DNA of 43,903 nucleotides. Source: a virus (taxonomy: Duplodnaviria; Caudoviricetes). Every line of letters starts with the position of its first letter. The stretch's first letter is position 1. The notes beneath the pieces are model-generated. The model was not told where the DNA came from and made no database searches. It saw nothing but the letters and a program-made list of their open reading frames with translations. Location: IMG/VR virus record IMGVR_UViG_3300024186_000005, positions 1 through 43,903 of that record. One strand, given 5' to 3'. Position numbers and translations under genes: made by a program. This document shows positions 20,339 through 38,094 of the stretch, one piece after another.

Positions 20339-20343
20339 GGGTA

Positions 20344-20805: not shown

Positions 20806-21017
20806 TAGGGCTTTGCAACCGTTGGCGGTGGAATAGGAGGCGTTGTGGGGTTGAGAGCCGCCATGAGCGCGGCGTAGGCGGCATCGTTTTTCTGTGTCAC
20901 TACCTGTACCTGAGCCGCTAGGGCATCGTCTGTAAGCCCGCCCTGAGCGCGTAGCTGGCCGATGTAGCCTAGAAGGGTGTTGAGCAAAGCGAGCGCCAAG
21001 CTAATATCGGGCATCAC
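20805..21017 (-). CDS. Small amphipathic protein, lysis cassette
   Basis: Hydrophobic N-terminus, Pro-rich tail; coupled. Confidence 0.65.
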   Translation of the reverse strand: MMPDISLALALLNTLLGYIGQLRAQGGLTDDALAAQVQVVTQKNDAAYAALMAALNPTTPPIPPPTVAKP

Positions 21018-21436
21018 TGACCTCCCAAGGCTGCAAGCAGCGTAGCAATTCCAGTGTTAATGCCATTCACGATCAGCGTAACTTCTTGCTGACTTTGCGG
21101 GTTATTGACATGAATAAGCGCTAGTTCCGCTGGATTGGACAGCGCGACTTGGAATACCGAGGCGCAGGCCGTGTAGCCCGTCTTGGCTCCCGAGGCGTGA
21201 ACCTGCTGGGCGCAGTTTCCAAAGGCTCCGTTGGCGTCGTTGGCAAACTTCAGGAACCCGAGGATGCTTGTCTCTTCCTGAACGGAGATTTTACCGTTCA
21301 CCCGCAGGTCATCAGCGGTTTTCATGCCTGCCGCGATAGCGTTACCGATGTTCAAAGCAGCTTTCTCAGATGCGCCGTATGGGTCTTTGCAGCCCATGAG
21401 CGTTACAGCCAACAGCAATACAGCTAGTTTTTTCAT
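21014..21436 (-). CDS. Lipoprotein, spanin candidate
   Basis: MKKLAVLLLAVTLMG|C lipobox; hydrophobic C-terminal helix. Confidence 0.75.
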   Translation of the reverse strand: MKKLAVLLLAVTLMGCKDPYGASEKAALNIGNAIAAGMKTADDLRVNGKISVQEETSILGFLKFANDANGAFGNCAQQVHASGAKTGYTACASVFQVALSNPAELALIHVNNPQSQQEVTLIVNGINTGIATLLAALGGQ

Positions 21437-21469
21437 TTGGTTCCTTTCTCTCGACTTGACCTTACAAAC

Positions 21470-21880
21470 TCAATCGCTGGCCACTGACTCATCGCCTTGC
21501 TCAATGAGCTGCCCGATAACCTCCAGCCGGTGGTCTCCGCTCTGCCAGATAGCCTCTCTGGCCGCCCGAGGCATAATGATGCAGCCCTCTGAAGCCGATC
21601 CGGGTGCATGTAGGCTGTCGCCGTGAATCATAAAGGCGGAGCGCCCGAACATTTCGTTTTCGGGGTCTGGTACCAGGTGCATGGCGTAAGGCCCATGCGA
21701 GGGTGAGTCAATCGGCGCTTCTATGGTGTATTTCCCGCAAGGAATAGGCCCCATATTGGGAACGTGCTGCGCGGCAGGGTCATTCTTGGCTAAGCCCAGC
21801 CCCGAGTAGCCTTTGGCCAGCAGCTTGCCCATCGGGTCAATCATCACGCCGGATTCCTGCACGTAGGTCCAGGTGTCCAC
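21470..21880 (-). CDS. Tlde1/DUF2778-family L,D-peptidase-fold protein, probable endolysin
   Basis: GYSG, GPIPCGKYTI, FGRSAFMIHGD...SEGCII (His/Cys dyad). Confidence 0.85.
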   Translation of the reverse strand: MDTWTYVQESGVMIDPMGKLLAKGYSGLGLAKNDPAAQHVPNMGPIPCGKYTIEAPIDSPSHGPYAMHLVPDPENEMFGRSAFMIHGDSLHAPGSASEGCIIMPRAAREAIWQSGDHRLEVIGQLIEQGDESVASD

Positions 21881-22135
21881 CTAGCGAATCCAGCCTCTTT
21901 GCTTTGCGCCGATGTAGAGCATTGCTGTGATGAAAATGAGGTAGCTGCCGTTATCCCGCAGAAAGACCCATTGATGGACGTACAGCCAGTAATAAGAGAG
22001 CAAATACAGCCCATAGGAGAGCCAAAGCCAGCCGAGTACGCCTAAAGTCCCAGTCCGCGTCTTTAAGAGCACCAGCACGCCCAGCAATAGCAGGAATGCC
22101 GCTTCTAGCGTCACATATGCCCTAGCCAGGCTCAT
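21881..22135 (-). CDS. Membrane protein (about 3 TM), holin candidate
   Basis: GGAGG RBS; hydrophobic helices; basic C-tail. Confidence 0.65.
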   Translation of the reverse strand: MSLARAYVTLEAAFLLLLGVLVLLKTRTGTLGVLGWLWLSYGLYLLSYYWLYVHQWVFLRDNGSYLIFITAMLYIGAKQRGWIR

Positions 22136-22385
22136 ATGCCTCCAAAACAACCAGCGCCGAGCAAACCAGCATTATCAGCGTGTAGGGGATGTAGATGAAC
22201 GTGTAGAGATCGGAATCCCAACCTGCTATATGCTGGGCCAGTTCAACCGTCAGCGCCCCGTAGAACTGAGCGCGGAACCAGCGGCTAATCGCCGGACTGT
22301 GGCTGCCCTTCATCGCCCACAGGAGGGTCAGCAGCAAGGCCAGTGACATTCCATACGTAGCGGCGATGTACCTTAAAGTAGCCAT
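22122..22385 (-). CDS. Membrane protein
   Basis: 2-3 hydrophobic segments. Confidence 0.55.
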   Translation of the reverse strand: MATLRYIAATYGMSLALLLTLLWAMKGSHSPAISRWFRAQFYGALTVELAQHIAGWDSDLYTFIYIPYTLIMLVCSALVVLEAYEPG

Positions 22386-22497
22386 CGGGATTCTCCGCAG
22401 TTGCCGTCAGTCCATCCCCTTCACAGGTAGCCACGCCTTCATCGGCTGACGTGCAAGTGGTTTTGTAGATTTCCCCATCTTTCGGCGGGTGACTCAA
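22285..22497 (-). CDS. Small acidic soluble protein
   Basis: TTG start in a TTGA overlap with GGAGG RBS; overlaps the next gene by about 100 nt. Confidence 0.5.
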   Translation of the reverse strand: MSHPPKDGEIYKTTCTSADEGVATCEGDGLTATAENPDGYFKVHRRYVWNVTGLAADPPVGDEGQPQSGD

Positions 22498-22688
22498 TGT
22501 GTGCCTCCATTCCTTGCTTTGATGTGCTTGCGTTCCTTGAAATCTTCCCACATGGCCTGAAACTTCCAGTCGCGCTGGCCCTCTTCCAGTGTTTCATTCC
22601 TGCGTTTCTTCCATACCATCGCAACGTATGTCAGAACATTGAATAGTGCGCTGACAAATAGGATTTGGTCAGAGTTAAGCTGGGGCAT
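22494..22688 (-). CDS. Single-TM protein
   Basis: GGAGG RBS; ILFVSALFNVLTYVAMVW then KKRR. Confidence 0.65.
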   Translation of the reverse strand: MPQLNSDQILFVSALFNVLTYVAMVWKKRRNETLEEGQRDWKFQAMWEDFKERKHIKARNGGTH

Positions 22689-22703
22689 TGGGCTGGGCCT
22701 CCG

Positions 22704-23000
22704 CTAATTTCGCAAATTCGCTACGAGCTTCTGAATCTCATCCCGCAAATCGTGCCGCGTAGTTCGTAGTTCATCGGTAAAAAACTTTGCAGTGCGAATC
22801 TCGGATAACTCCAGTTCCTCCCGTACTGCTTTCCTGAACTCCTGCTGCCAATAGGACACGGGCTTTGAGCCGCTGTGGCCATTCTCGCTGGAACGCTCAC
22901 CCGGCTTGCGAAGCTCCCGAATCATCTGCAAGACAATCCACAGGACGCCTATGCTTGCTCCCAAGCCGATGCTGAGTTCCGCTAGTTTTTGTAGGTTCAT
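22704..23000 (-). CDS. N-terminal TM plus coiled-coil protein, holin-like
   Basis: IGLGASIGVLWIVL followed by a helical tail. Confidence 0.65.
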   Translation of the reverse strand: MNLQKLAELSIGLGASIGVLWIVLQMIRELRKPGERSSENGHSGSKPVSYWQQEFRKAVREELELSEIRTAKFFTDELRTTRHDLRDEIQKLVANLRN

Positions 23001-23018
23001 GGCCCATTTGAGCTTCCC

Positions 23019-23234
23019 CTAGTTTGCTGGTGGTGATTCTTTAGGTAGCTTGGAAGCGTATGCCCGTGTGATGTTCGCTCCCAGCGTGTTGCTGAACTGG
23101 AAGAACCAGCGATAGAATTTCCCGCTCGAAGCATCCGGCATGGGCAGCGAGCCGACACCGGCGCTCAGAACGTAGTACCCTGCAAGAGCAAACAGCGTTT
23201 GATGGGCTGAGATATAGCTAAGTAGCTGGGTCAT
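23019..23234 (-). CDS. Small membrane protein, holin-like
   Basis: GGAGG RBS; ...LPMP....FYRWFFQFSNTLGANI pattern. Confidence 0.65.
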   Translation of the reverse strand: MTQLLSYISAHQTLFALAGYYVLSAGVGSLPMPDASSGKFYRWFFQFSNTLGANITRAYASKLPKESPPAN

Positions 23235-23328: not shown

Positions 23329-23634
23329 TCATTGCAGCGTGCCGGTAGGCGTAACCGGATTGAATACAACCTTGCTGGGAATCGGCAGCACAACAACTCC
23401 TGTCTGGCCGTTCACGGAAAGCACGGGTGCCGAGCCTACGAGAGCGTAAGGGCCACCCTTGACTGAGATAGCCAGCCCTTCCACCGCAAAGCAGTATTGC
23501 GTCTGCCCCGCTACAACCGGCGCACAGTTGGCGAGCGCACCTGTAGCGATGATGGTGTAAGTCGTGGTGGTTTGTGCTCGCAGATACCAGCCAAGCCCGA
23601 GCGCCAGAAGCGCAACTACTACAAGTTTTCTCAT
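23329..23634 (-). CDS. Signal-peptide-bearing mini fibre protein
   Basis: MRKLVVVALLALGLGWYLRA|Q; VLSVNGQTGVVVL tail-fibre repeat. Confidence 0.75.
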   Translation of the reverse strand: MRKLVVVALLALGLGWYLRAQTTTTYTIIATGALANCAPVVAGQTQYCFAVEGLAISVKGGPYALVGSAPVLSVNGQTGVVVLPIPSKVVFNPVTPTGTLQ

Positions 23635-25637
23635 CGCATTGTCACCGTTCCGCTAGACTTTAGGATTCCCGCAAAGGTATTTCCTGGTGCTGGTACGCCC
23701 GTTCCTGCGCCTGTGAGGTTCATGCCATCGGCATTGCCCGTGTTATCAAACAGCGTGATGCCTCCGCTTACTGGCCCCACAGCCCCTATTTGCATCGTTA
23801 CTTGGAAGGTGCAGGACTGGCTGGGCGTCAGCGTGAAACCAGCCCCCGGTGAAGCCTGAGAGAAAGTACCTGAAGCCCCGCAAGTGTTATTCACGCCGGA
23901 GAAGGTTCCGTTATTGCTCGTGATGCCAGTTACGACAAGGTTCGCTGTTCCGGTATTTGTGAGCGTGATGGTTGAAGATGGATTGCTCACGACACCCACC
24001 GGAGCGAATCCCACGTTCAGCGAGGTAGGGCTGAAAGTGGCGATGGGGGCAGGCGCGTTTACCAGCGGATGCGGATAAGTGAGCGGAGTGTAGTAGGCCG
24101 TCCAAGTATTGGCGGGATTGCATTGGTAGAGCACGCCATTCCCTGCATAGGAATTGATATTGCTCCCGCCGCTGGTATTCCAGTTTCCTTGGTCCGTCGC
24201 CCAATAGCCCACGCCAGCCGTGCAGTTCGTTTGCCGCGATGCCAACGTCCCAACGCACACTCCAGCAGTCTGTGCTCCTGCCCCGGTTGCACAATCTTGG
24301 AAGAGAAATATGTCCGCGTTCCGCACCACGCGACTGATTCCGCCCTGTATGCTTTGGTCCAGATAGTAGGCTGCCCCAGTAGCATTCGACGGATTGAAGT
24401 TTTCGAGCCAGCCAGCATAGATTGGTTCAGATGCTTGGCGCGGATAGGCGCAAGCCTGCGAAGGTCCGCAACCCGTAGTTGAATTAACCTTGTTTGGGTG
24501 CGAGCCGGACAGAAGATCGCCTCTGCCTCTGCCGGGGTCATCTATGCAGTGATAGCCCGTAGTCCCACTGGTGTTCTCATCCCAGTTGGAACCTGTGCCG
24601 TTAAACTGCGTCCCGCAATATCCCCAGCCAGCGGGGGTGGGCTGCTGTGTGTAGGTGGAACTATTTTCCCGCATCGAATGGGTGGTTAGAAAGAAGTTCC
24701 ACCCTCCACCAGCCGATGAGCTGATAAACGGGTTGTTGTTGCCCCAGTAGGCTCCCGTTCCTGCGCTATGGAACATGATGTTGAATTTGCAGGTTCCGCC
24801 CGAGCCTGAGCAGGAGGGAGCCGTAAACTTGTTTTGGTACATTTCCGTCAGCCGTCCGCCACGGTCATTCCCTGCCGTTCCGTCGTGGCCCAAAGGATGC
24901 GTCTGGCCGGACATATTGTTGATGGTGTTGAAGCGGTAGACGTTTCTGCCGCCCTGATAGTTGTCGTTTAGCTGCGTTGAGCCGGTGATGTAGTTATCCT
25001 CAAAATAGATCGCGCTTGAGGTGCCCATGCCAGAGGCGTTAATCCATGAGGAGTTCCCTCCACCAACCACACGCGGACCTGTATTGTTGGGAGCGATTAC
25101 ACAGTGGTCCACGACTCCGAATGTTTCCCCGAAGATAGTCCAGGTCACGTTGGCGCTGATAGCGAAATGGCTGTGGTCAATGCGAAGCTGGGTGGTGCCA
25201 CCGCCCCAAGTGAATACGCCGTTGTTCGATGTGGGAGCCGTGCCGGTCTGAGCCGTGATGCCGGACCAGCGGAAAGACTTCCCTGCCGGGATACTGAAAA
25301 CCCACGTCGCATCAGGCGCTCCGCTTACGTTGTGGTTCACGTCATCAATCATCACGGTGTTGTCTGTGCAGGTGGATGTACTCGGTGGGCCGGGACAAAG
25401 CGTAGCGCCAATCAGACTAGTGGAGTGCGCCACCGTGAAATTGATGCCAGTTGTCCAGTGCCAAGTACCTGAGTTAATCGTGATGGTTGTGTTCTCCAGA
25501 TTCACGCTGTTCAGTGCCGCCGACACGCTTGCTTGGTCGCCGTTAATCGGGCCGCAGGTTGTGGTTCCGGCGCATTGGGCGTGGATAGTTCCGGCGAACG
25601 CCAGACAGGAGAATGCGAGAATCAGCAGTTTTTTCAT
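23631..25637 (-). CDS. Secreted beta-helix spike/adhesin with C-terminal ASH-type Ig domain
   Basis: MKKLLILAFSCLAFAGTIHA|Q; Asn-ladder repeats; YTPLTYPHPL; FSPTSL...ITLTNTGTANL...LTPSQSCTFQV. Confidence 0.8.
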   Translation of the reverse strand: MKKLLILAFSCLAFAGTIHAQCAGTTTCGPINGDQASVSAALNSVNLENTTITINSGTWHWTTGINFTVAHSTSLIGATLCPGPPSTSTCTDNTVMIDDVNHNVSGAPDATWVFSIPAGKSFRWSGITAQTGTAPTSNNGVFTWGGGTTQLRIDHSHFAISANVTWTIFGETFGVVDHCVIAPNNTGPRVVGGGNSSWINASGMGTSSAIYFEDNYITGSTQLNDNYQGGRNVYRFNTINNMSGQTHPLGHDGTAGNDRGGRLTEMYQNKFTAPSCSGSGGTCKFNIMFHSAGTGAYWGNNNPFISSSAGGGWNFFLTTHSMRENSSTYTQQPTPAGWGYCGTQFNGTGSNWDENTSGTTGYHCIDDPGRGRGDLLSGSHPNKVNSTTGCGPSQACAYPRQASEPIYAGWLENFNPSNATGAAYYLDQSIQGGISRVVRNADIFLFQDCATGAGAQTAGVCVGTLASRQTNCTAGVGYWATDQGNWNTSGGSNINSYAGNGVLYQCNPANTWTAYYTPLTYPHPLVNAPAPIATFSPTSLNVGFAPVGVVSNPSSTITLTNTGTANLVVTGITSNNGTFSGVNNTCGASGTFSQASPGAGFTLTPSQSCTFQVTMQIGAVGPVSGGITLFDNTGNADGMNLTGAGTGVPAPGNTFAGILKSSGTVTMR

Positions 25638-27346
25638 GGTAGAAGGTCCGACCCATCAAAGGAAATCTTCCAGCCGTCAAAGTAGTAGTGGTAGCCAGCC
25701 GACCCAGCGATGTTGGCATTGCCGACAAAGGCCCACTCCGCCGCCTGCCCTTGCGCTGGGCACGATGCCTGCCCGAGCAAGCCCGGAGGATTCGCATTGT
25801 TGTAGACTTTCATCGTGTGGAGTCCTGCCTTGCCTGCCGAGTCTGTCTGCGCTGCGTTGCCAGCATGGGTTTCAGCTACACCGGAAGCGTTGGCTAGCGT
25901 GAGAGTCGTAGTCGTAGAAGCCGTGGCGATGAAAGGGCCGCCATTGTTCGCTGCATTCGTGAAGGTGTTGATGTAGTAGTAGTTTCCTACAAGGGCGTTC
26001 GATCCGCCGCCCGTGATGGTTCCGGTATAGACCGTGTTCCCGCCTGATGCGTTGGCAGCGGCAGTGAGCGTGAGATTGGCGGCAGGTGCCACCGCGTTGT
26101 AATACATCTCTACCCAGTATTGGGTGTTGAGCGAAAGCCCTGTGATGAACTGTGTGCTGGGGATGCTGGGGCATTCAAAGGACCATGACCGTGCGCCAGC
26201 GGTCTGGACGGATTGGGCGAGTGCAAAGTCCGTGCTGATACCCGCAAGCCCCATTGTGTCGTCATTCTCAGCGAGTGACAGCGAGTGATTCGTTTGTATC
26301 CACACTCCAGCGGTCACGGAACGTGCGGATGTGAACGGGTGCCCTTGCTGGCCGCAAAACATGATGCTGTTGCCATTTCCAGTGGCGTAGCTCAATCCGG
26401 TAGTGGTTGAATCGGTGGTGTTGCTGCCATCTATCAAGCGGCCCGTGGCGTTCTGCAAGGTCATCGAAGCCGCTGTAGAGTAAGTGAAATCCGTCGAATG
26501 TGACCCTCCCGCCCAAGCGCAGCCTGAATAGCCAAAGGTTCCCGATGCCAACGTGGAAGCGCTGGGACTTACTCCATTCGTTCCGCCGAACATCTGTACA
26601 GCTTGCGTAAGCGGAGCTGTGACGTTGTAGCCCAGATAGATTTCCTGATTCACTACGAAGGAAGCGGAAGCAGCCAGCGTGGCCGATGGGGTCAAAGCAC
26701 CTGAGAAACTGAGATTGTGGCCAGAGCCAAAGTGCGTTCCTGTTGCGTCCGCAGTCATGCCCGTGAATGAACTGATATTCTGAAAGGCGACAACCCGCAT
26801 AACTGCCGTATCGCTGCCAGAGGACGGCGTAAAAGTCGTGCCGTTTGAAGTGGAGGAGCTTGCTTGCAGAAAACTGTTCGCTCCGTCAAGGGCCGGAGTG
26901 CCTGTATAGGTACCAGCCCAAACTGCAATAGCATTAGGATTCGTTTGCGTTCCGCTAAAGGTGAAAACGATGTTCGTGCTCTCTGCCCCGGCATTCATAA
27001 TCAGCAGGCAGGAATGCAGTCCTAGAGCCGTGCTCGGATTGCTCCAGTTGAAAGCGCCAAGCACCTGGACAGCCGTGCCGCTATTGTCCGTAGAGGCTAG
27101 CCAGATGTCGTTGCCCGAATGGTCGTAGGCGCAAGCAATAACAGCCTGTCCAGCGGAGATGTTCGGGCTGATACCAACCGTGCAAGTGGTGCCAGAGCTG
27201 GGGCAGGTAGTTGTGGCTCCGATGAGCGTCATGCTCGAAAAGCTGCCGCCAGCAGCCTTGGCATTCACGATGCTCTGAAGCATCTGCCCGTGAACAGGCA
27301 GAGCAAAAACTAGAAGCAATAAAAGCCGGGTCAGTTTGCTGTCCAT
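25634..27346 (-). CDS. Secreted beta-sandwich adhesin/receptor-binding protein
   Basis: ATG 27346 or CTG 27334; TRLLLLLVFALPVHG|Q; Ser/Thr/Gly-rich; lectin-like C-terminus (YYFDGWKIS). Confidence 0.75.
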   Translation of the reverse strand: MDSKLTRLLLLLVFALPVHGQMLQSIVNAKAAGGSFSSMTLIGATTTCPSSGTTCTVGISPNISAGQAVIACAYDHSGNDIWLASTDNSGTAVQVLGAFNWSNPSTALGLHSCLLIMNAGAESTNIVFTFSGTQTNPNAIAVWAGTYTGTPALDGANSFLQASSSTSNGTTFTPSSGSDTAVMRVVAFQNISSFTGMTADATGTHFGSGHNLSFSGALTPSATLAASASFVVNQEIYLGYNVTAPLTQAVQMFGGTNGVSPSASTLASGTFGYSGCAWAGGSHSTDFTYSTAASMTLQNATGRLIDGSNTTDSTTTGLSYATGNGNSIMFCGQQGHPFTSARSVTAGVWIQTNHSLSLAENDDTMGLAGISTDFALAQSVQTAGARSWSFECPSIPSTQFITGLSLNTQYWVEMYYNAVAPAANLTLTAAANASGGNTVYTGTITGGGSNALVGNYYYINTFTNAANNGGPFIATASTTTTLTLANASGVAETHAGNAAQTDSAGKAGLHTMKVYNNANPPGLLGQASCPAQGQAAEWAFVGNANIAGSAGYHYYFDGWKISFDGSDLLP

Positions 27347-30300
27347 GTGCCCGTGAAGGAAGCAGTCAGATAGTGGGTCGAGTCGCGGCCCAGCAGGCAA
27401 ACCTTGTCGCCCACCGCTCCGCCAGAGATGAAGGTTCCCGTTCCCGCCGTGCCGTAAGCTGTGCGAGCCGTGTTCTCATAGCGAGCCGATGAGCCGATAG
27501 CGGAGAGCGTGATTACTGTCGCCACGTTGTCATCGTTCATTATGCAGAACTCGTAGCCTGCCGCTGGGACTGGAACGGTGATCGTGCAGGTGCCTGTACA
27601 GATGAAATACTGCCGGGGAGCCGTGAGCGTTACGCTCGTACCAGCGGTCAGCCCTGTGGGAGCGTCTACATAAGCCGTAGTGGCAATCTTTGTGGAATTA
27701 TCTTTGGCGGATTGCGTGGTGGTGGTGGGCGAGCCTGCAAGGGCTGCGCTAGAAGGCAAATCGGCGCTAACGATGGCGCTGGGAGCATAGATTCCCGCTG
27801 TCGCCGTGGCGTGGAGTATTTGCGTTACCGTAGTGGAAGTAGTGGTAGTTGTCGCGCAAAGTCCATCAGCATTGTTCACGTAGCAGTGGGGAATCTTGGC
27901 TGTGGAGTCGTAACCGAGCATGGAGGTTGCGCCAGCCGTGAAGCCTGCGCCTGTTGGTATTTTCCAAGTTGCTCCCGAGAAGTCCTGTAAGCCTGTCCAT
28001 GTGTTCGCAGCGTTGAACAGAGCCGCGTGGCTGGCAGCCGTCAAGTCAGCATCTACGATGTTGAAGTACGCAGGTGCCGCTGGAGTTCCCGTGTTGTTGC
28101 CGAGATATTTGTGGGCTGGAGCATTGGTGAACGTCAGCACCACGGCACCCGCAGAAAGTGAATTAGATACCACTCCGCCGGCATCGCCTGAGAAGCTAGA
28201 AACGCCGGAAGCCGATGAACCGCAACTAATCGGTGGTATGGCCGTTGGGTCGAATTGGATGGCGTTTCCCGCGCCAACGCAGGAAGGAAAGGCGCTGAAA
28301 TCTGGAAAGCGTGAAGCGGTGTAGTTCACACCGTCTGACCATAGAAATCGTGTCCAGTTTTGCGGAGTAACTAAAGATGCTCCGCCATTGACAGTAAACC
28401 CGCTCGCCGTTTCAGTGACCTTGTTCGTGCCAATGTTTTTGAGCACGTTGAAGAAATTCTGGCTGGCGCAAGCCGTGGAGGGGTTGAGCATCGTGTAAGT
28501 CTGTGCGCCTGCGTTGCTGGCTGTCACTAGGAAGCCGCGGTCGCATTGGTAGTTTGCGGAGCCTTCCGTGTAGGTCGTGCCAGTCTGGGGATTGATGGGG
28601 ATTCCGGCCAGATCACGAGCAGGAGCCACGGGAGTTGTTGTGGGCGTGGGATAGTGGAGAATGTAATCGCCAGCCACAACGGGAGCATTCAAACCAGCGC
28701 AGCCGCCAGCACCGTTGTTGTACTGGGTAGCATTGACCGTGCCGCCCGGAGAGCAGCCACCTCCACCGCCTCCGCTACCAAGTCCCAGAGCCTCGCAGTC
28801 TGTGCCATCGCAGCTAGCGAGTAGTCCGCTGTTAGCTGGGATCGTGATGCTTCCTGTTGCCCCGTTGCCGTGCAAGGTGCCGGAATCAATCGCCAGCGTT
28901 TCCGTTCCGCCCGAGTTGTTGAATACCTGCCAGCTTTGCCCACGAATTGCATGGGGAAGCGTGAAGGTCATGGGCGTGCCTGTGCCGATGACGATGCCTT
29001 CGTCGAGCGCCAGCGTGTGATTCGCTGAGTAGGACACCAGGCTTTGGCCGTAGCTGGGAGCGAAGATTCCCGGCCTATTGCCGTTGGGCGTGCCCATGTG
29101 GATTACGTTTTTGTTCTGCCCAATCGCTACATAGCTCAATCCGTTGGCATCGGCCACGTTTAGCAGCGTCACCGTGCCAACAAAAGGATTACCCGTAATC
29201 AACGCTCCCGCGCTGGGCAGGTTGGCGCTGTCAATTACGAAAGTTCCTCCCAATCCTTTGGAATTGGGAGTGAGGTTCGCCAATGTCGCATGACCCCCAG
29301 TATCAATAAACATATTCTGCAAGGTGAAAAACCCGCCAACATTTCCCGCATTCTCAGCATTGGATACCATCACTACAGGCGTGATGTTGCCCTGGATTTC
29401 CTCGCCCATGTGGAAGCGGCCAGTTAGTCCGGAAAGATGAGGCAGGAAGTAGGCTCCGCGCCTGTTCCAAGAGCTGTAGCTGAGGTTCCAAAGCGTATTG
29501 AACTTGCTAACGAATTGCGGCGTGGAGGTTGAGCCGTCCACCTGCGTTGGCCCCATGACGAACGAGCAGCGGCGAATGTCACCGCCAAATCCCCCAGAAG
29601 CGACAGTCTCGTAATCGTAAAACGCAATGTTCATGTAGCCTGTGCTGTTGCTGTCGGTGAATGTCACTTCATCCAGCACCGCCATTGCATTGCCGTTCTT
29701 ATAGAAGATTTCAATTCCGCCGTTCTGCCCGAACAGCGACATCAGCACTTTGTTGACGCTGCCGCCCTTCAGGTAAATCATCGGGTTTGCGCCGTGGCCC
29801 ACCATCGCCGTGTGACTTCGGATTCCGAAGCTGGGATTGCTCATGCTGATGGCATCGGCATCTGTTCCGTAGAGGTTGCCGTTCAGCTCCATCGTTTCGC
29901 TGAAGCAAATCTGGCTGTCCGCGTACATGGCCTGAACGCTGGCCACGAGGTAGCTACTGATGAGATAGCAGGAAATGCCTGTTCCGCTGTTTCGCAAGAT
30001 CGCTGGAAAGTGAATCGTTCCGCCGCCGCCTGTGTTGCCTGTATTCGAGGCTGCAAGAGCCGCCTTGATAGCCGGAACGTCATCGAACTGCACAGGCGAA
30101 GTCGTTACGCTCGTCACCGCGTTGTCAGCCAGCGTGAAGGTAGTCCCTGAGATGTTCGTAATCGTGGTCACGAGCATATCGTTCACAGCCGCGCCGGGAG
30201 GCGTTGAAGGCGACCACCAGGGCCAAGAAGTGTTGTCCATCATGGGCGAGCCATAATCGTCCCAAGTGTTGTAGACGGAATCGGTGAGTCCTAGATTGGC

Positions 30301-31755
30301 GATGAGGCTGATTCCTACCCGCGCCATTGAGCCAGCGGTACGTCCGAAGATTAGGTATTGCGAGCCGTTGCCCGTGGGTGCTGGCAGAACGAGGTGGTTG
30401 CACAGCCAGAAATAGACCGTTCCGCCTGTCGCTGTCGTTGTGGAGATGCCCCGCGCTGCATCTACGCCCGAGTTGTAGGTGAAGTGCGTTCCGTCAACGA
30501 TGGAAGCGATAATCTTCCAGCCGCCGAACTCCGCGTCATTCGTGCCGCCCTTGAGTAACACGAGGCAGCCAGCCGCAAGGTTGGCAGTCGAGCCTACCGT
30601 GGCTGTGAAGGTGTTTCCTGAGCCGCTGGCGCTGCTAGTCCAAGCCGTGTTGTTGGCCCCGAGCGAAGCGTTGCCGGTCGAAGTTGTGCCGTTGGCAGAG
30701 GCAGCCGTGTAGCCGCGCCCAGTGTCATAAGCAGAGATGGAATAAGAGTAGGATGTCGAGCCAGCACCAGCGGGAGTCGTATAGCCCAGCCCTGTGGGTT
30801 GAGTGGCGCAAGAGGGCGTAACCGTGGGTGAGGTTGGAGTGGTTGCTGTGATAGCCGCACCAGCACCAACTACCGCGATGCCGTCATTTTTTACGAAGGT
30901 GGAAGCGCTGGCCACCGTAAGCGTGGGTGAGGCGCTATTGATCGTGCCGGTGCTGGCGGGGATGGCATTGGGGCTGATGGCCCTCGCACCGAAACTCCGA
31001 ATATCCACACCCGGATTCGGTCCACGATTTGTCTGATCACCGCCGACAGTAAGAGAGCTGGCTAGGCTGGCGCTCCCAGTTGCCGATAAAGTTCCCGTGA
31101 TAGCGGTATTGTCGCCCACAGCCAGATTACCAGCAGTCTCAGCTAGGTTCGTTGTCTGGCAAGCGCCTGCCGTTCCCGCTGCCTGAATGGTTCCCTGTGA
31201 GCCAGAAGCTGAACATGCACCACCACCGCCACCACCGCCAGCGGGCTGGATAAGCTGGCTCCAATTCGTTCCATTGAACTTGTAAGTTGCATCTGTGCAG
31301 CCCGTTGTCTGGATAGCAGTTGTATTGAGGAAGTTTCCAGGCCAAGAGAATGTCCAAGGGCCTCCCGATTGGCAGATGTGAAAACCCATAAGATTGCCGT
31401 TTATAGGAGTTCCTGTAATGCTTGAGAAGGTGACATTTCCGGTAAGTGTGACGCTGTAGTTGGCGCTCGATGAGCCATTGAAAGCCATGCCGGAAGAAAA
31501 GGCGATGGGAATGTCAGGCAGCACGGAAGAGATACTTCCCGTGAATGGCGTCCATGTATGCGGGCGAGTGAGCGTGTTGCAAGAATAATAAGTCGTCGTA
31601 GATACATCCATCGCAACCTGGTAGACATCGCAGGGACCAAACGGAGCATGTGGATAGGTAATGAGCTGGACGGGATAGGCCGAGGGCTGCTGGGCAAAGC
31701 AGACGCCGCATACCAGCAAGAGGATGAGTTCCAATAGCAGAAAGCGTTTAATCAT
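27331..31755 (-). CDS. Large tail fibre/spike with pectate-lyase-like beta-helix and signal peptide
   Basis: MIKRFLLLELILLLVCGVCFA|Q; VDIRSFGA...DDVPAIKAAL...GGTIHFP; poly-Gly hinges; TTQSAKDNSTKIATTAYV fibre repeat. Confidence 0.82.
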   Translation of the reverse strand: MIKRFLLLELILLLVCGVCFAQQPSAYPVQLITYPHAPFGPCDVYQVAMDVSTTTYYSCNTLTRPHTWTPFTGSISSVLPDIPIAFSSGMAFNGSSSANYSVTLTGNVTFSSITGTPINGNLMGFHICQSGGPWTFSWPGNFLNTTAIQTTGCTDATYKFNGTNWSQLIQPAGGGGGGGACSASGSQGTIQAAGTAGACQTTNLAETAGNLAVGDNTAITGTLSATGSASLASSLTVGGDQTNRGPNPGVDIRSFGARAISPNAIPASTGTINSASPTLTVASASTFVKNDGIAVVGAGAAITATTPTSPTVTPSCATQPTGLGYTTPAGAGSTSYSYSISAYDTGRGYTAASANGTTSTGNASLGANNTAWTSSASGSGNTFTATVGSTANLAAGCLVLLKGGTNDAEFGGWKIIASIVDGTHFTYNSGVDAARGISTTTATGGTVYFWLCNHLVLPAPTGNGSQYLIFGRTAGSMARVGISLIANLGLTDSVYNTWDDYGSPMMDNTSWPWWSPSTPPGAAVNDMLVTTITNISGTTFTLADNAVTSVTTSPVQFDDVPAIKAALAASNTGNTGGGGTIHFPAILRNSGTGISCYLISSYLVASVQAMYADSQICFSETMELNGNLYGTDADAISMSNPSFGIRSHTAMVGHGANPMIYLKGGSVNKVLMSLFGQNGGIEIFYKNGNAMAVLDEVTFTDSNSTGYMNIAFYDYETVASGGFGGDIRRCSFVMGPTQVDGSTSTPQFVSKFNTLWNLSYSSWNRRGAYFLPHLSGLTGRFHMGEEIQGNITPVVMVSNAENAGNVGGFFTLQNMFIDTGGHATLANLTPNSKGLGGTFVIDSANLPSAGALITGNPFVGTVTLLNVADANGLSYVAIGQNKNVIHMGTPNGNRPGIFAPSYGQSLVSYSANHTLALDEGIVIGTGTPMTFTLPHAIRGQSWQVFNNSGGTETLAIDSGTLHGNGATGSITIPANSGLLASCDGTDCEALGLGSGGGGGGCSPGGTVNATQYNNGAGGCAGLNAPVVAGDYILHYPTPTTTPVAPARDLAGIPINPQTGTTYTEGSANYQCDRGFLVTASNAGAQTYTMLNPSTACASQNFFNVLKNIGTNKVTETASGFTVNGGASLVTPQNWTRFLWSDGVNYTASRFPDFSAFPSCVGAGNAIQFDPTAIPPISCGSSASGVSSFSGDAGGVVSNSLSAGAVVLTFTNAPAHKYLGNNTGTPAAPAYFNIVDADLTAASHAALFNAANTWTGLQDFSGATWKIPTGAGFTAGATSMLGYDSTAKIPHCYVNNADGLCATTTTTSTTVTQILHATATAGIYAPSAIVSADLPSSAALAGSPTTTTQSAKDNSTKIATTAYVDAPTGLTAGTSVTLTAPRQYFICTGTCTITVPVPAAGYEFCIMNDDNVATVITLSAIGSSARYENTARTAYGTAGTGTFISGGAVGDKVCLLGRDSTHYLTASFTGTWTAN

Positions 31756-33146
31756 TGAACCCCCTGATTCGGGTGAAACGGTTCTCCAGGTTGATTAGGG
31801 GCAACCTGTGGTAACTGCCTACCCTTGGCCATAAGCTGTTCCATGATGGAAGCTCCCAATCCGGCCTTCGCACCAATATTCTGAGGAACGAGATCATTGA
31901 CTGCCGGGATGCCACGTCCAGCCACAGCTTCAAACCTGCGAGCAATTCCGGTAACGGCTGAACCAAGAGCGCCCTTACCCATGCCTGCTTCTTCCGCCTT
32001 CATAAGCTTTTCAAGATCAGTCTGTGCGGCAAGTAGATTTGTTAGTCGTTCGTTCAGTTCGGCGCTTTCTGGAACAGCCTTATTCACGGCCTGCTTGATG
32101 GAGCCGTAGACTTGCCTGTAGGCGGGTTTCACGTCATCAGCTACGGCCACATTTCCGGCCCAGTTGATTCGATTGCCGATAGCTTGCTTGATTTGATTGG
32201 CCTGCAAGGGAGTAACTGTCTCGCCTAATCCTTCTTTTAGCGAAGCCTGCAAAGCTCCTATTTGCGATGTAGCAGCATCTTTTTCAGCTTTTGTAATTGC
32301 CGGGTCATTAACGATTTGCTCCCATGCCTTCATCAAGGGCTTGTCTATGATGTCCTTCACCTTGATGGGCGTCTGGGATTGACCTAGGACTTTTTCAAGT
32401 TGCGGAGCGAGTTCCTGAACTTTCTGTGATACCTGAGCCGTTCTTCCGCCGGCGGCTATAAGAGCTTTTTCTGGGTCAGCACCAAGCCGTAAGGCCGCTT
32501 TGTAGGCTTCCAAATCTCCCGTAATGGGACTATTGATTCCCTCTTTAATCATCGCTACGGCTGGATTGCCGTAGGTGACATCTCGCGTAGTAGCTCCTAC
32601 GGAAGAATTGACCATCCCTCTGGCCAGTTTCCCCGTGAATAAGGAGCCTGCAACTTTCTCGAATAATCCCCCAGCTCCACCAGCCAATCCACCTGTGACG
32701 GTAGATTCCAGAAGATTCTTTCCAGTCTCCATGTTGAATGGTGATTCGCCAGCAGCGGCATGTAGGCCTGTCTCGATTAGCCCGCTTCCCAAACCTGCCG
32801 TTGCGCCACCTGCAACCCCGCCAAGAATGCCGCCACCAGCGGCACCACTGGCAGCCTCTGGGCCTATGACAGAAGCCCCTAGTAAGGCAGGAGCGGCAAA
32901 AAGTGATGCTCCTAGAACAGTTGGAACCTTGCGGAGTGCTTCATGCTGCGAGGCTGCTAGCTGTTCTGGAGTGACTTTCTTCCCAGCCTCTACCGCCCGA
33001 TTCATGGTCTGCTCGAAAGATTCACCCTCTCTTGGTGTGATGGGCTGCTTGGATAAATCCTGGGCCTGAATGGGATTGCCGTGCTCATCCCAAGATTTTT
33101 GGGCAGTCTTGACTACATTTCCATTTTCATCCCAAGTGGTGGGCAT
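31752..33146 (-). CDS. Ejection/internal virion protein
   Basis: Gly/Ala-rich hydrophobic segment plus helical body; repeated WDExGN at the N-terminus; position after nozzle. Confidence 0.7.
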   Translation of the reverse strand: MPTTWDENGNVVKTAQKSWDEHGNPIQAQDLSKQPITPREGESFEQTMNRAVEAGKKVTPEQLAASQHEALRKVPTVLGASLFAAPALLGASVIGPEAASGAAGGGILGGVAGGATAGLGSGLIETGLHAAAGESPFNMETGKNLLESTVTGGLAGGAGGLFEKVAGSLFTGKLARGMVNSSVGATTRDVTYGNPAVAMIKEGINSPITGDLEAYKAALRLGADPEKALIAAGGRTAQVSQKVQELAPQLEKVLGQSQTPIKVKDIIDKPLMKAWEQIVNDPAITKAEKDAATSQIGALQASLKEGLGETVTPLQANQIKQAIGNRINWAGNVAVADDVKPAYRQVYGSIKQAVNKAVPESAELNERLTNLLAAQTDLEKLMKAEEAGMGKGALGSAVTGIARRFEAVAGRGIPAVNDLVPQNIGAKAGLGASIMEQLMAKGRQLPQVAPNQPGEPFHPNQGVQ

Positions 33147-34339
33147 TATTCAGGCGCTGTCCACGTTCTGTTCTCAGGATTCCATGTAGCGTTTTCAGGA
33201 ACACCCTTTGGCCTTGCTGGAACTTCCGATTCGCTTCCTTTGATTTTCACCGAAGGCATAGCGTTGAACTTCGCGCCGTAGCGCTCATTGATTCCCTTGA
33301 TGTCCGCTTCGTACTTTTCTCGCGCACCCTTTGTCACCATCTGTGAAACTGAATCCATATCGTTCAGCACGTTGTCAGGAATAGATGCGCCCATCGATTG
33401 CTTGCCGAGGTATCCAGTAATGCGGTCCAGTGCGCTTCCAGCCGCACCATAGGTTTCAATTTCCGGCAGGTTCATGCGCTTAATCTGGCCAGCTACGTTA
33501 ATTTGGAGAACTCCCGTTACCGGCGAATAGGCATAAGCTACCGTGTTTCCCTTTTTGGCCATCTGCACCATGTCGTGCATTTCATTTCCGGCTTGCTGGG
33601 CTTGGGTAAAAGATTGGTCTGCCTTCGTAGCATCATCCGTCGCTGGCTTGATTAGCTGTGGAGTTACGCCAGCAAGGGCCGCTGGATACATGGCTTGATG
33701 CGCCCGTTCTACAGCAATGGCGGTCTGTGCAGCCTGAGTAGCATGGGCCTGGATTACCTTGGGATTGGTTTCTTTTTCGATGGCCGATATGTCATCGCTG
33801 GCTTTGTCGATTACCTTGCGAGCACCTTCCAGATCGCCAATCTGCAAAGCATTATGGGCAAGGACCTTTGTGCGCTGGTTAAGCTCTGGATATTTGTCTA
33901 GAGGGACCACTGAATCAACCTGCTGGTCAAACATCTGCGGACCCTGCGTCATGGTCATTAACTTCAAAAGTGTTTCTTTTTTCTTTATGTCCGCTTGGGC
34001 ATTCTGTAGCTGCGTCTCCAACATGGCTTTGTTCAGAGGATGCATTTCTTCTTCGTATTGCGAAGCCAGTTTTTCATGCTGGGCGACGGCCGTTTTATAA
34101 TCCGCCTCTGCTTGTGGCAGCCCAGCGGATAGGCCAGCTTGAATTTGTTGAGTCTGTGCTCCCTGTAACCCTGCTTGTGATTGTTGCGCTGCCTGTTGCG
34201 TATTGGCCTGCTGTTGCCCCAACTGCTCCTGCATCGTCTGGTGGTGATGCTCATTGGCAAGCTGAATCGCAGACAAGATTTGGCTGGTGATTCCCTCTTG
34301 TGGGATAAACGGTATTCGGATGTCAGTGTTTACGGGCAT
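33146..34339 (-). CDS. Ejection/internal virion protein
   Basis: Gln/Ala-rich coiled coil; TGATG overlap start. Confidence 0.7.
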   Translation of the reverse strand: MPVNTDIRIPFIPQEGITSQILSAIQLANEHHHQTMQEQLGQQQANTQQAAQQSQAGLQGAQTQQIQAGLSAGLPQAEADYKTAVAQHEKLASQYEEEMHPLNKAMLETQLQNAQADIKKKETLLKLMTMTQGPQMFDQQVDSVVPLDKYPELNQRTKVLAHNALQIGDLEGARKVIDKASDDISAIEKETNPKVIQAHATQAAQTAIAVERAHQAMYPAALAGVTPQLIKPATDDATKADQSFTQAQQAGNEMHDMVQMAKKGNTVAYAYSPVTGVLQINVAGQIKRMNLPEIETYGAAGSALDRITGYLGKQSMGASIPDNVLNDMDSVSQMVTKGAREKYEADIKGINERYGAKFNAMPSVKIKGSESEVPARPKGVPENATWNPENRTWTAPE

Positions 34340-34905
34340 CAGGTTCCTCCCGGCCCTTGCCATGTCTGGCCAATAAACGGCGGCGTAGGTCCTACTTGAT
34401 TATTGATTCGGCTGTTCAGGCCGTTCTGAATCGAGTAGGCTGCAATCGGCGCTACTCCCGCCATAAACCCGCCAAATCCACTTTGACCCGGAGTCGCACC
34501 AATGTTTAAGAGCTGGGCGATAGTCTGCCAAGCCTGCTGCTGGCGCTGGATAGCCTGTTGCTCCAAGCTCAAATTGATGTTTCCCTGATTGACTTGCGAT
34601 TGATTGGAGTTCTGCATCAGCGCTTGTCCAAGCAATCCAGAACGTCCCAACCCACGAGAAACAAGGGCATGAGTAGCCTGATTGTTGGCTCCGGTGAGCG
34701 ATTGAGCATTCTGACCGTAGAGCTGTGCCTGCTGGAGCGGATCGGCTTGTGGAGTACCATAGGCCAGCTTGCTGAGGTTGCTACCTGGACCTAAAAGATT
34801 GTTGAGTGCTCCGGTCTGAGCAGGGTTGAGCGAGGGTGGACGTGGATTAGATGCCCCCGAAATGCCGCCAAGTAGACCGCTAAGGATTCCACCTAAAAAG
34901 CCCAT
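34339..34905 (-). CDS. DNA pilot/ejection protein
   Basis: MGFLGGILSGLLGG N-terminus; SRGLGRSG; Gln-rich. Confidence 0.7.
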   Translation of the reverse strand: MGFLGGILSGLLGGISGASNPRPPSLNPAQTGALNNLLGPGSNLSKLAYGTPQADPLQQAQLYGQNAQSLTGANNQATHALVSRGLGRSGLLGQALMQNSNQSQVNQGNINLSLEQQAIQRQQQAWQTIAQLLNIGATPGQSGFGGFMAGVAPIAAYSIQNGLNSRINNQVGPTPPFIGQTWQGPGGT

Positions 34906-35198
34906 TATTGCCCTCCGCTTCCGGGCGTCTGTTGCCCATATAGCGACATGAGTAAACCGAACAAGGGGCCAAATTGATTAGCCTGTGCGGGATTTAATCC
35001 ACCACCAGGACTCATCAGCGAGAGCGCCTGCCCAAATCCGGGTTGTGAAGCTGCCAGAGCATTTACGTTATGCAGGTCTCCGCCAGTCTGAGCGAGCAAC
35101 GCCTGATAGACGGGACTGGAAGAAGCAAGTTGATCCTGCGAAGTTCCCTGCCCTCCCCCAAATTGCGGTAAGGCAGAGATAATCGGCACGCTACTCAT
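34905..35198 (-). CDS. Small Gly/Gln-rich virion protein
   Basis: Coupled on both sides. Confidence 0.65.
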   Translation of the reverse strand: MSSVPIISALPQFGGGQGTSQDQLASSSPVYQALLAQTGGDLHNVNALAASQPGFGQALSLMSPGGGLNPAQANQFGPLFGLLMSLYGQQTPGSGGQ

Positions 35199-35746
35199 GG
35201 AAGATTAGGACCACTCCTCACGGGTACAAGCTTTGGCTGGCGTGGAGCGATAGCCGGAGTAGGTGGCGCAGCCTCGGATGTGGAATAAGTAAGCGTTGTG
35301 GCCGTGACTGTTGAGGATGGCTGGCTATACTGCTGCCCTTGATAAGCGTAGACCTGGAAGGAACTCGTTACCGCTACGTTTCCCACCGGGATTTGATAGC
35401 TGACCTGCTCTCCATCGGGAATGTTGTACCGTCCAATCAATTTCACCATTGCGGTATCGGAAGCCTGCGTAATCACATACCCATCGACATTCGCTATCTT
35501 GTTCCAGACGAGATGGAATAGCCCCTGCTTCCCTGTAACGATTAAGCCGCTTACATTTTGCGGCGTCCTTGCCTGTACCTGCTGAATCGTATTGAGTCTG
35601 CCCTGAAAACTCTGAAGCGCCTGATTGATGATGGTGGTCATTGTCGCTAGGTGCTCACTGATAATCTTGGAATCGCCTTCCGTATCTGTGAGCCTCCCGG
35701 ATAGTTTGGGAGGGACGGGTAGGCGATACACATTCCCTCGCCTCAT
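35195..35746 (-). CDS. Tail protein with FN3-like domain
   Basis: N-terminal helix, then PQNVSGL...LVWNKIANVDGYVI...FQVYAY...SQPSSTV. Confidence 0.72.
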   Translation of the reverse strand: MRRGNVYRLPVPPKLSGRLTDTEGDSKIISEHLATMTTIINQALQSFQGRLNTIQQVQARTPQNVSGLIVTGKQGLFHLVWNKIANVDGYVITQASDTAMVKLIGRYNIPDGEQVSYQIPVGNVAVTSSFQVYAYQGQQYSQPSSTVTATTLTYSTSEAAPPTPAIAPRQPKLVPVRSGPNLP

Positions 35747-38094
35747 GTCTGCCCCGTCCTTGCTCGGCCTGTACGCAAATCATAGAGTGCCTTCACATGC
35801 ACAATCTTTATCTGTGGCAAACCGCTTACATTGACGTTCGTAAGCATTCCTTTCAGTCTCCAGGAGAAATTCTGCATCTTGCGGGAAGCGGTTGATTGAA
35901 CTGGACGGACAACCCTTTGCAGGCCAGTAGTTGAGATCGCTGGCAATACTTCGCTGCTATTTCCTCCATCGTAGTAAACAGTGGGTGTCAGCGATTGGCC
36001 GTTGGTGTTGAGATAAAATTCCAAGGCCCACAATGCCTTGTTAGACCCTCGCTGGAAATCCTGATAGCCGTGCTGGAAATCGAAAAGAACAGGAAGCCCA
36101 TTGCCATCAGCCGCAGTCCAATCATCGTAGAGATGTATGAATCCAACATCATCGCCTCTATAAACGAAACCTGTAACCGGGTCTATGGTCAGAGAAAGCT
36201 GGTTGAATCCTGAAGGAATCCGGGACGTGATGTTGCCGTGCTTCACATCGAACAGCAGCATCATGTTGTTCACAGTGTGGAAAATGTCGGCATACGCGAA
36301 GTAGTACTTCTCGCTGTTGCCGATGCCTTCAAAGACGGTTGGTATCTGTGGGTCAAGGATATTGGGTGGAGGGAAATACCCTCCAATGACAGTTCCGCTT
36401 AAATCCAACTGCTTAAACCACGGGTCCAGCTTTGTAGTCAGCGGCTGGCTGGTATAGCCATTGAATCCCCACAGCCCGTAGCGGTTGGCGAAGATAACCT
36501 TGTCCGGCAATGCCTCTACTGTGAACGGCTCATCTGTTCCAACTGAGGAAGGTGTCTGGCTGAGATCGAACGAGCTTTCATCGGTACCAGTCAGCCTCCA
36601 GATGGAATCCGTCTTGATGATGATTAGCTCACCGAAGATGGACACAATCCTGCTGATGGGCTTTGAATCTCCAACATCAAAGGCATTCACTACCGGATAG
36701 GCAAAAGCATCCAGCGGCTTAGACCAGATGATTTGATTCGGCTGGGTCTGGTTTATCCAGAATAGACGGTCATAGTGATAGCAAGGGAATCGAACCTGCT
36801 GGTTGCCAAGCCTGGTATTCGGGAAGTCTCCAGGAACATCTCCAGCCAGAATGACGCCTTCAGTGAGCGCCGCGATGTCCGTAACATTGTCGAGGAAGGT
36901 TGTGGATAGATTATCCTGAAGGCTGCCCACCAAGTAGTAGAGCGTCAGCCCTGTGTTCGCTGCATATCCCTTGCGGTAAATGTTCCTGCCGGTTGTCCGC
37001 GCATCTCCAATTGGGATTGCGGTAAGCGTTCCATACTGGCTGGAAAGGGTGGAAGTGTTTGTGGGAGAACTTCCATCGCTCTCTTCTCCGTTGGCAGCAA
37101 CAAAGGTGACTTTCCAACTATAGGTTCCGGTTAGTGTGCCTACGCCCGCTGGGGCAGCGACTGTGCCGGATGCAAACTGGGTAATGGTAAAACGACAATT
37201 TTTCAGAGAGATGTTAACCAAAACAGTCGCAATGGCGCTGGCCGTGAATTGCACTCCAAAATTAGCTGCATTGATCTGCGCCGGTGTGAGCGATAGGCCC
37301 CACAAGGAAGAAGAGTTTCCGAACTGTACAGTTCCAGTGCCGGAATGAATGTTTACGTTTTTGGTCTGGCCCGTGGGAGTTCCATTGACATATAGAGTTG
37401 CGTTAACAAAGCCCGCCGTCTGGAATCCGTGGTCTAGGCCCATGTTGTAATCTACGTTTACGGTTACTCCGAGAATCGCTGAGGTTCCCAAAGCGAAGCC
37501 TGGATTCAGAGCTAGTAATTGTGCGCTGGTTGAAACTTCTGTAATCAGAGTAACGGTAGCGTATGAACTAGGGGATGCGATGCCCGATGGCGATACCCAA
37601 GGCTGCCCCAGTGCTCCCGTTGCGCTTCCAGTCTGTACCCGCGTGGGGCCTGTCGTTCCGCCTCCCGCTGAGGCTGGGGGTGCCCAATCCACAAGTAGGA
37701 GATTATTCATGTCGGTCCAGTAGCCGACACTTCCAACATCAAAATAGATTCGTCCGGGAGCCGATTCAAAGGACATCTTCTGCTGGTTGGGATTCTGGCC
37801 AACGAGTTTAGCGGACATATTTCCCAACGTGGGACCAGTAAATACGTCCTGCCCAACTCCCGCAATGCCGCCAAGCGAAGGATTCAGAAACAAGGAATGG
37901 ATGGCAGTATTTCCCAAACTGTCGGCATAGGAAGCGGTATTCTGTACCGTATAGGCTCCCGCGCTCTGGATGTCGCCAGTTACATCCAAGCGGCAATTCT
38001 GAGCCAGCAGGCATTCCTTGGGGTCAAGCTTATCTACTCCTGCTAAAGTACTCATGCCCCCAGAGAAATCTGAAAGTATCTTCTCCTCGCTCAA
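35743..38094 (-). CDS. Tail nozzle/tubular protein with inserted beta domain
   Basis: DFSGGM..D.L...EC..AQN start; beta-propeller-like RLFW..QIIWS, LIIIKTDSIW; TTGA-coupled start (track start 38109). Confidence 0.78.
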   Translation of the reverse strand: MSEEKILSDFSGGMSTLAGVDKLDPKECLLAQNCRLDVTGDIQSAGAYTVQNTASYADSLGNTAIHSLFLNPSLGGIAGVGQDVFTGPTLGNMSAKLVGQNPNQQKMSFESAPGRIYFDVGSVGYWTDMNNLLLVDWAPPASAGGGTTGPTRVQTGSATGALGQPWVSPSGIASPSSYATVTLITEVSTSAQLLALNPGFALGTSAILGVTVNVDYNMGLDHGFQTAGFVNATLYVNGTPTGQTKNVNIHSGTGTVQFGNSSSLWGLSLTPAQINAANFGVQFTASAIATVLVNISLKNCRFTITQFASGTVAAPAGVGTLTGTYSWKVTFVAANGEESDGSSPTNTSTLSSQYGTLTAIPIGDARTTGRNIYRKGYAANTGLTLYYLVGSLQDNLSTTFLDNVTDIAALTEGVILAGDVPGDFPNTRLGNQQVRFPCYHYDRLFWINQTQPNQIIWSKPLDAFAYPVVNAFDVGDSKPISRIVSIFGELIIIKTDSIWRLTGTDESSFDLSQTPSSVGTDEPFTVEALPDKVIFANRYGLWGFNGYTSQPLTTKLDPWFKQLDLSGTVIGGYFPPPNILDPQIPTVFEGIGNSEKYYFAYADIFHTVNNMMLLFDVKHGNITSRIPSGFNQLSLTIDPVTGFVYRGDDVGFIHLYDDWTAADGNGLPVLFDFQHGYQDFQRGSNKALWALEFYLNTNGQSLTPTVYYDGGNSSEVLPAISTTGLQRVVRPVQSTASRKMQNFSWRLKGMLTNVNVSGLPQIKIVHVKALYDLRTGRARTGQT

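Follow-up and report, generated by a model that had tools for sequence, protein, structure and literature searches.

Predicted export leaders on a cassette of fibre-like genes in a soil podovirus-type phage and its relatives

The stretch of DNA analysed here (the window, 43,903 nucleotides) carries four coupled genes for fibre- or spike-like proteins, A to D, each beginning with a predicted Sec leader that ends in a small residue followed by glutamine. As judged by comparison with homologues, this leader-bearing fibre feature is real and widespread. Because export-type leaders on four such proteins make folding outside the cytoplasm likely, we consider it fairly probable that A to D are folded in the periplasm and attach to the phage particle at lysis; of the two parts of this reading, export is very likely and attachment to the virion probable.

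The genome and its leader-bearing cassette

The window represents a phage genome that is circularly permuted and whose ends overlap by 137 nt, and a separate contig (L006) bridges its end-to-start join at 100% identity over 1063 nt. It is a complete podovirus-type genome, classed in IMG/VR as linear and 65% complete. An assembly artefact is ruled out by the contig spanning the join and by contigs of a second soil run (X2), which show 0 differences from the window where A and D begin; the six sequencing runs are all from 2018 soil and may be one campaign. Searches against Pfam and PHROG identify a terminase, an SU10-type portal with adaptors, a major capsid protein and a nozzle-like protein, and find no tape measure in the window genome, a combination that makes the phage podovirus-like. 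No tyrosine integrase was found in the genome with PF00589, and the phage is thus no obvious lysogen. Its host probably belongs to the Acidobacteriota: an Acidobacteriaceae MAG includes a 3.8-kb contig with a 91%-identical capsid gene, evidence that is weak because the contig may be misbinned, and named members of the families come from Terriglobia and Acidiferrales.

Co-occurring strains have skipped or replaced stretches near an Ig gene (20343-21431) and within gene C (24062-24107), and a stand-alone Big_2 Ig protein without a leader is encoded at 20344-20805. A 596-aa methyltransferase (40000-41790), the second half of which we take from its motif to be glycosyltransferase-like, is placed within the structural module in every close relative, and a second methyltransferase (4472-5113) lies between terminase and portal; modification of virion or host glycans by these two enzymes is possible.

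The features on which the argument draws are the following.

27331..31755, minus strand: gene A, 1474 aa (ORF and leader reading)
31693..31755, minus strand: predicted Sec/SPase I leader of A, 21 aa, CFA↓Q (heuristic; kept in homologues)
31516..31692, minus strand: mature N-terminal module of A, YxPQLIT..C..YQ..C..W (alignment of homologues)
25634..27346, minus strand: gene B, 570 aa from the ATG at 27346, leader VHG↓Q, 8 Cys (ORF reading)
23631..25637, minus strand: gene C, 668 aa, leader IHA↓Q, beta-helix and C-terminal Ig domain, 17 mature Cys (model)
23329..23634, minus strand: gene D, 101 aa, leader LRA↓Q, one Cys pair (ORF reading)
31752..35746, minus strand: leaderless genes between nozzle and cassette, a 183-aa coiled-coil/FN3-like protein and presumed ejection proteins (position, composition)
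35743..40016, minus strand: leaderless tail core, two SU10-type adaptors and nozzle (PF24175, phrog_511, phrog_399, alignments)
39054..40016 and 38338..39054, minus strand: the SU10-type adaptors (PF24175, phrog_511/phrog_399, alignments)
38091..38345, minus strand: leaderless fibre stub, 84 aa, with conserved N-terminus and variable C-terminus (alignments)
21014..23234, minus strand: presumed lysis genes, namely small membrane proteins, a Tlde1-domain enzyme and a lipoprotein (downstream of the cassette)
21470..21880, minus strand: Tlde1-domain enzyme in endolysin position (PF10908, E 8e-16)
21014..21436, minus strand: lipoprotein (lipobox)

Genes A to D all lie on the minus strand, after the presumed ejection genes, the last of which overlaps the start of A, and before the lysis-type genes; the overlaps along the series 464-aa gene, A, B, C and D are 4, 16, 4 and 4 nt in that order. 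Their place in the tail module is that of a podovirus tailspike or fibre, and A and C are modelled as beta-helix or fibre folds, with matches that do not separate tailspikes from cellular enzymes; podovirus fibres are leaderless and assembled in the cytoplasm, whereas all four genes here have leaders. These start with K or R, continue with a hydrophobic core and end at CFA↓QQ, VHG↓QM, IHA↓QC and LRA↓QT, so that, by a heuristic reading, the basic n-region, the hydrophobic h-region and the small residues at -3 and -1 of Sec/SPase I leaders are all present. The leader-plus-Gln test, our own heuristic and not SignalP, was passed by A to D only among the 41 minus-strand ORFs of at least 100 aa, and by 0 of 2533 internal 45-aa windows of the same four proteins. 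A sequence-only reading of this DNA had described four coupled leader-bearing genes with Gln at +1, and the boundaries, overlaps and cleavage sites all bear it out; a recount likewise returned the 17 cysteines it had given for the mature 668-aa protein C (A has 26, B 8 and D 2).

At cut-off, Pfam and PHROG return nothing for A to D: there is no match to the S74 family (Pfam) and no known virion anchor domain (Pfam, PHROG), although domains of the latter kind do follow the leader in cassette partners and in members of the families. The four proteins contain no lipobox and, by eye, no evident C-terminal anchor, and tblastn with A and C returned no match from the set of cultured phages. No promoter-like site was found on the minus strand ahead of the cassette, which, together with the overlap with upstream structural genes and the negative PF00589 search, speaks against a lysogenic-conversion moron. 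An upstream TTG start of B (588 aa) was set aside, as it lies inside A.

Protein A is laid out as leader, two-Cys N-module, Gly hinges, beta-sandwich inserts, right-handed beta-helix and a long fibre-like C-terminal half. In a model of residues 22-920 the core has a pLDDT of about 90, and the N-terminal 220 aa do not fold as a monomer; the conserved N-terminal module is a candidate docking or trimer module. Structure comparison of the model matches both GH87/GH28 enzymes and tailspikes (E 2e-4 to 6e-3). The C-terminal 149 aa, in which DNSTKIATTAYV lies, match a single tail fibre of a cultured phage (E 0.004), and a PDB profile search gave a single weak match to a virion protein (8jov, E 0.003). 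We take VLSVNGQTGVVVL to be a fibre motif. The model of C (pLDDT 82) shows a generic beta-helix, with pectin methylesterases and PL6 lyases as best PDB matches and none at E<=0.001, and C resembles secreted pectin-type enzymes more closely than it does tailspikes; its C-terminal domain is ASH/Hydin-like Ig (PF22544, E 0.005, below cut-off). The fibre hallmarks claimed for the cassette are weaker than had been described, the helix of C being generic and the end of A matching a single cultured tail fibre. Protein B, a candidate distal adhesin, is 64.5% identical to a cassette gene in locus L072, shares a module with the leaderless gp7 of Tunturi 3 (E 1e-11) and has mostly viral Atlas neighbours with scores of only 0.77, and D has a weak leader-bearing homologue (L112, E 4e-4). 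Many C-family proteins end in PAPPTNLxAxVQ, and the terminal strand of small FN3-like proteins (L025 6603-6896, L001 14465-14905, L038 13826-14398) reads PxAP; such ends might possibly serve donor-strand linking.

The sequence-only reading had also held that there is no signal-less long fibre elsewhere. None is found among the window ORFs, but an 84-aa leaderless fibre stub exists, as does a variable insert in the 788-aa nozzle-like protein (alignments). The C-terminal half of the stub weakly matches the ends of cultured tail fibres (E 3e-4 to 1), its Atlas clusters (66-85 aa, score 0.95-0.96) are 92-100% viral, and a PDB profile search with it returned nothing useful; it is a candidate cytoplasmic socket. 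The adaptor at 39054-40016 has, at residues about 135-210, an insert with three xSQExG repeats, possibly a pseudo-threefold dock for a trimer, and the adaptors and nozzle of the tail core are further candidate docks. An ejection function is presumed for genes in 31752..35746 from their position and composition; holin and spanin roles are likewise presumed within 21014..23234.

Leaders, glutamine and cysteine parity

The leaders are retained in homologues. They are kept in 6/6 homologues of residues 1-300 of A, and all 12/12 database matches of the A N-module carry leaders and even mature Cys counts. Within the A family (717 cluster representatives), 94 of the 149 representatives examined pass the leader test, the rest being in part fragments or missed leaders and in part clearly leaderless; of 160 homologues of C, 96 of the 119 examined pass.

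The glutamine at +1, to which the sequence-only reading had drawn attention, is there in 4/4 genes but seems to be no special feature of the phage. In samples of Terriglobales (4 genomes of the presumed host order, about 0.6 Mb), 34/52 candidate leaders, some of them false positives by eye, are followed by a small residue and Gln, as against 89/346 other proteins in the same sample, and Gln at +1 is thus best read as a host export pattern; its presence on host leaders rules it out as a phage-specific signal. About two thirds of the candidate leaders in Terriglobales are followed by Gln across L177-L196, L150 and L155-L174. Formation of pyroglutamate on A to D is plausible where the host has a glutaminyl cyclase: PF05096, which represents one of the two cyclase classes, occurs in 18/61 genomes of the presumed host family and not in MAG G006. 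As a side result, the counts point to a Q-rule-like pattern in Acidobacteriaceae, outside Bacteroidetes.

The number of cysteines left once the leader is removed provides further evidence. An even-Cys bias is a mark of exported proteins in disulfide-forming bacteria, according to PMC7678975. Among dereplicated leader-plus-Gln proteins of 80 viral loci, 90 have an even, 14 an odd and 1 a zero count (p about 1e-14), and among 76 leaderless controls 25 are even, 31 odd and 20 zero; incomplete ORFs, 4 near-duplicates and 9 "leaderless" proteins that by eye had a missed leader or truncated start were removed from the set. Parity is 61 even to 13 odd in the C family and 12/0 for the A N-module; it is flat in the A family (49 even versus 38 odd in one count, 46 versus 39 in another), and the small host sample of 52 leaders shows no even bias (16 even, 20 odd, 16 zero). 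Seven leaderless A-family members have an N-terminal domain free of Cys, whereas Cys is present in 14/16 leader-bearing versions of it. The argument that richness in Cys by itself means export was dropped, because leaderless A-family members are Cys-bearing too, at about 1.1%. By eye, a C-terminal cap module is Cys-free in the leaderless stub L003 4070-4363 and has a Cys pair in the leader-bearing L009 12398-14425. Collectively, the kept leaders, the even mature counts and the Cys pairs found mainly in leader-bearing modules lend good support to the proposal that these proteins are exported and disulfide-bonded.

Spread of the cassettes and their link to virion tailspikes

Six distinct relatives, with capsids 88-94% or nozzles about 60% identical, carry leader-plus-Gln genes either at the cassette slot or among the head and adaptor genes, and alignment shows the mature N-module of A to be common to genes across these positions. 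No such gene was seen in L003, L014 and L036, short fragments that end before the slot; L035 has none at the slot, and in L007, which is nearly identical to it, one such gene follows the head genes. In 19 loci of distant capsid relatives (35-50%), the fibre-like genes >150 aa within the flanks are leaderless. In L001 (2434-5301) the adaptor is extended at its N-terminus by about 630 aa that lack a leader and are propeller-like and Ig-like by eye, giving this phage a cytoplasmic appendage in addition to its leader-bearing genes.

Searching viral contigs with a profile of C yielded 132 stretches, and the 80 loci kept, 2 of them without an assignable ORF, hold 172 leader-bearing fibre-like ORFs of at least 200 aa, 112 with a small residue and Gln. 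The cassettes fill the fibre slot of unrelated podovirus cores, and in a siphovirus (L085) the cassette follows the tape-measure and tail-tip genes. A comparison of 25 relatives' proteins with Pfam and PHROG yielded one FN3-like match at cut-off and nothing else. Among cultured phages, of which the first 40-50 kb of Tunturi 1-4 were examined, gp12-17 of Tunturi 1/2 follow the tail adaptor; 5/6 pass the leader test, gp12, 13, 16 and 17 have Gln after a small residue, and gp12 has the A-family N-terminal domain (E 1e-18). Tunturi 3, which shares its host with Tunturi 1/2, and Tunturi 4 have leaderless tail genes.

The link to virion proteins comes from the N-termini. G637, a complete phage of 43.7 kb whose capsid is unrelated to that of the window, has homologues of A, B (64.5%) and C, and its first cassette gene, after the ejection genes, consists of a leader and a domain the start of which aligns with Met1 of the tailspikes of PBR31, a Xanthomonas phage in which the tailspike occupies the same slot, and of the Shewanella phage X14. 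A similar arrangement of leader and tailspike-like domain is found in L095, and in L105 the leader is followed by the tail-protein N-terminal domain phrog_1640 (E 3e-32); about 6/72 scanned leader-bearing N-termini match such families. Within the A family, 7 leaderless members begin with the domain that sits just behind the leader in 16 leader-bearing members. By these sequences, descent of A to D from virion tailspikes is supported both by the leaderless family members and by the anchor domains kept behind the leader. G637 also has leader-plus-Gln on the gene directly after its capsid gene and on one after its adaptor (L198 13701-14558, 16440-17246), so that head decoration may be exported too.

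Proposed assembly of the virion and comparison with known systems

The model we favour would operate as follows. Genes A to D would be co-translated with the late operon and their products secreted by the host Sec system, whereupon SPase I would cleave the leaders and the mature proteins would be oxidised, disulfide-bonded and folded in the periplasm, with pyroglutamate plausibly formed at their N-termini where the host has a glutaminyl cyclase. A would form a trimer, and B, C and D may act as accessory tips. Lysis would then mix the compartments and allow A to D to bind the finished, cytoplasm-built particle, for which the N-module of A might dock on the 84-aa stub, on the adaptor insert or on the nozzle. 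Since the P22 tailspike attaches late and spontaneously, such a last docking step would be workable.

Against this reading stand the lack of a recognised anchor in A and the presence of A- and C-family genes in cellular polysaccharide clusters (L150 and L067, respectively), which indicates that these folds can serve the cell surface. The flat Cys parity of the A family, the Cys of its leaderless members, the lack of an even bias in the host sample and the likeness of C to pectin-type enzymes also count against it. Moreover, the leaderless fibres of Tunturi 3 mean that export is not required to infect the host of Tunturi 1/2, and in the window phage the nozzle insert and the stub could suffice for adsorption. 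The main rival, less likely in our judgement, is that A to D are exported and disulfide-bonded but stay off the virion, as fibre-derived adhesins or depolymerases that infected cells display or set free when they lyse; they might then, to name some equally tentative roles, clear polysaccharide, block receptors or tether progeny, with the virion binding via nozzle insert and stub. The cellular copies beside polysaccharide genes and an A-family gene in one Terriglobia MAG would fit such a role, as would the host-type Ig domain of C, its resemblance to a secreted beta-helix family also found in cells, and the leader on the post-capsid gene of G637, and the MAT fibres of Bdellovibrio offer a cellular precedent (PMC10769870). 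What speaks for the virion is the rarity of cellular copies in single-protein queries (1/251 Acidobacteriota genomes for C, 2/401 genomes for A, one of the two being the unpublished G268), the negative searches for an integrase and for a lipobox or, by eye, a C-terminal anchor in A to D, and the tailspike anchor domains kept behind the leader in G637 and L105.

Two other explanations strike us as far less credible. The hydrophobic N-termini could be uncleaved membrane tethers or assembly peptides on proteins that stay cytoplasmic or membrane-bound and are oxidised after lysis, which would accommodate the many Cys of leaderless A-family members; this is very improbable, given that the leaders vary in sequence and yet keep the n-h-c pattern and the Gln at +1 of host leaders (34/52 versus 89/346), and that Cys parity becomes even once the leader is removed. 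It is just as hard to believe that A to D reach the outer surface or vesicles before lysis and that particles acquire them with membrane on a non-standard exit: leaders do occur on head-region genes in relatives, but the genes after the cassette are a lysis-type set of the ordinary kind, and Tunturi 1/2 are described as plain podoviruses (PMC11924767). Periplasmic folding with docking at lysis is thus the reading that we retain.

Assembly of tailed phages is, to our knowledge, regarded as entirely cytoplasmic, and searches of the open full-text literature returned no description of exported tail fibres in them; PMC3556154, PMC5723332 and PMC8951688 contain nothing relevant. The podovirus tailspikes or fibres, such as gp9 of P22 and gp17 of T7, are close in layout: those of PBR31 (orf034) and X14 occupy the same slot after the ejection proteins, combine an N-module with a variable beta-helix, and share their N-terminal domain with relatives of A to D. 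They are, however, leaderless and cytoplasm-assembled, whereas A to D add leader, Gln at +1 and Cys pairs, and the N-module of A, unlike theirs, matches no known anchor. The pIII of filamentous phages is an exported, disulfide-bonded receptor-binding virion protein, alike in both respects, but inoviruses assemble at the membrane and are then extruded, whereas the window phage has a portal, a terminase, an HK97-type capsid and lysis genes.

Outside phages, the MAT fibres of Bdellovibrio bacteriovorus (PMC10769870) combine a signal peptide and a conserved N-terminal domain with mosaic phage-like trimeric fibres and beta-helices, and are chromosomal predator adhesins, 13/21 of them with an S74 chaperone. 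In layout, their signal peptide followed by a conserved N-domain resembles the pattern in A to D, which differ in lying in a phage structural operon, in the rarity of their cellular copies and in having no S74 match. In the Q-rule of Bacteroidetes (PMC5837995), leader cleavage exposes Gln, as it would in A to D; the paper on this rule nowhere uses the word "Acidobacteria". Q-rule genes of P. gingivalis prophages follow the rule of their host, and five such phage genes are, in PMC10367356, neither assigned a function nor described as fibres. Tunturi 1/2 (PP887698, PP885685), cultured Acidobacteriota podoviruses, carry gp12-17 as a leader-bearing cassette after the adaptor, as is the case for A to D, though A and C have no tblastn match among cultured phages; the main text of the paper on them (PMC11924767) mentions neither "signal" for a phage protein nor "mass spectrometry".

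Taken together, we lean, with slightly more reserve than for the window phage itself, towards the view that many tailed phages of soil bacteria, with podovirus as well as siphovirus cores, build their virions in two compartments, the head and tail in the cytoplasm and disulfide-stapled fibres in the periplasm, and join them at lysis by means of mobile leader-bearing cassettes. If this is true, receptor-binding gear made in the periplasm would break the rule of cytoplasm-only assembly, host modules that are secreted and depend on disulfides could be taken over by phages as fibre tips, and infectivity would depend on the Sec and Dsb systems of the host. Among the phages that infect abundant soil bacteria the cassette route seems to be widespread, and even if A to D should act off the virion, they would represent a large undescribed family of phage-encoded secreted fibres.
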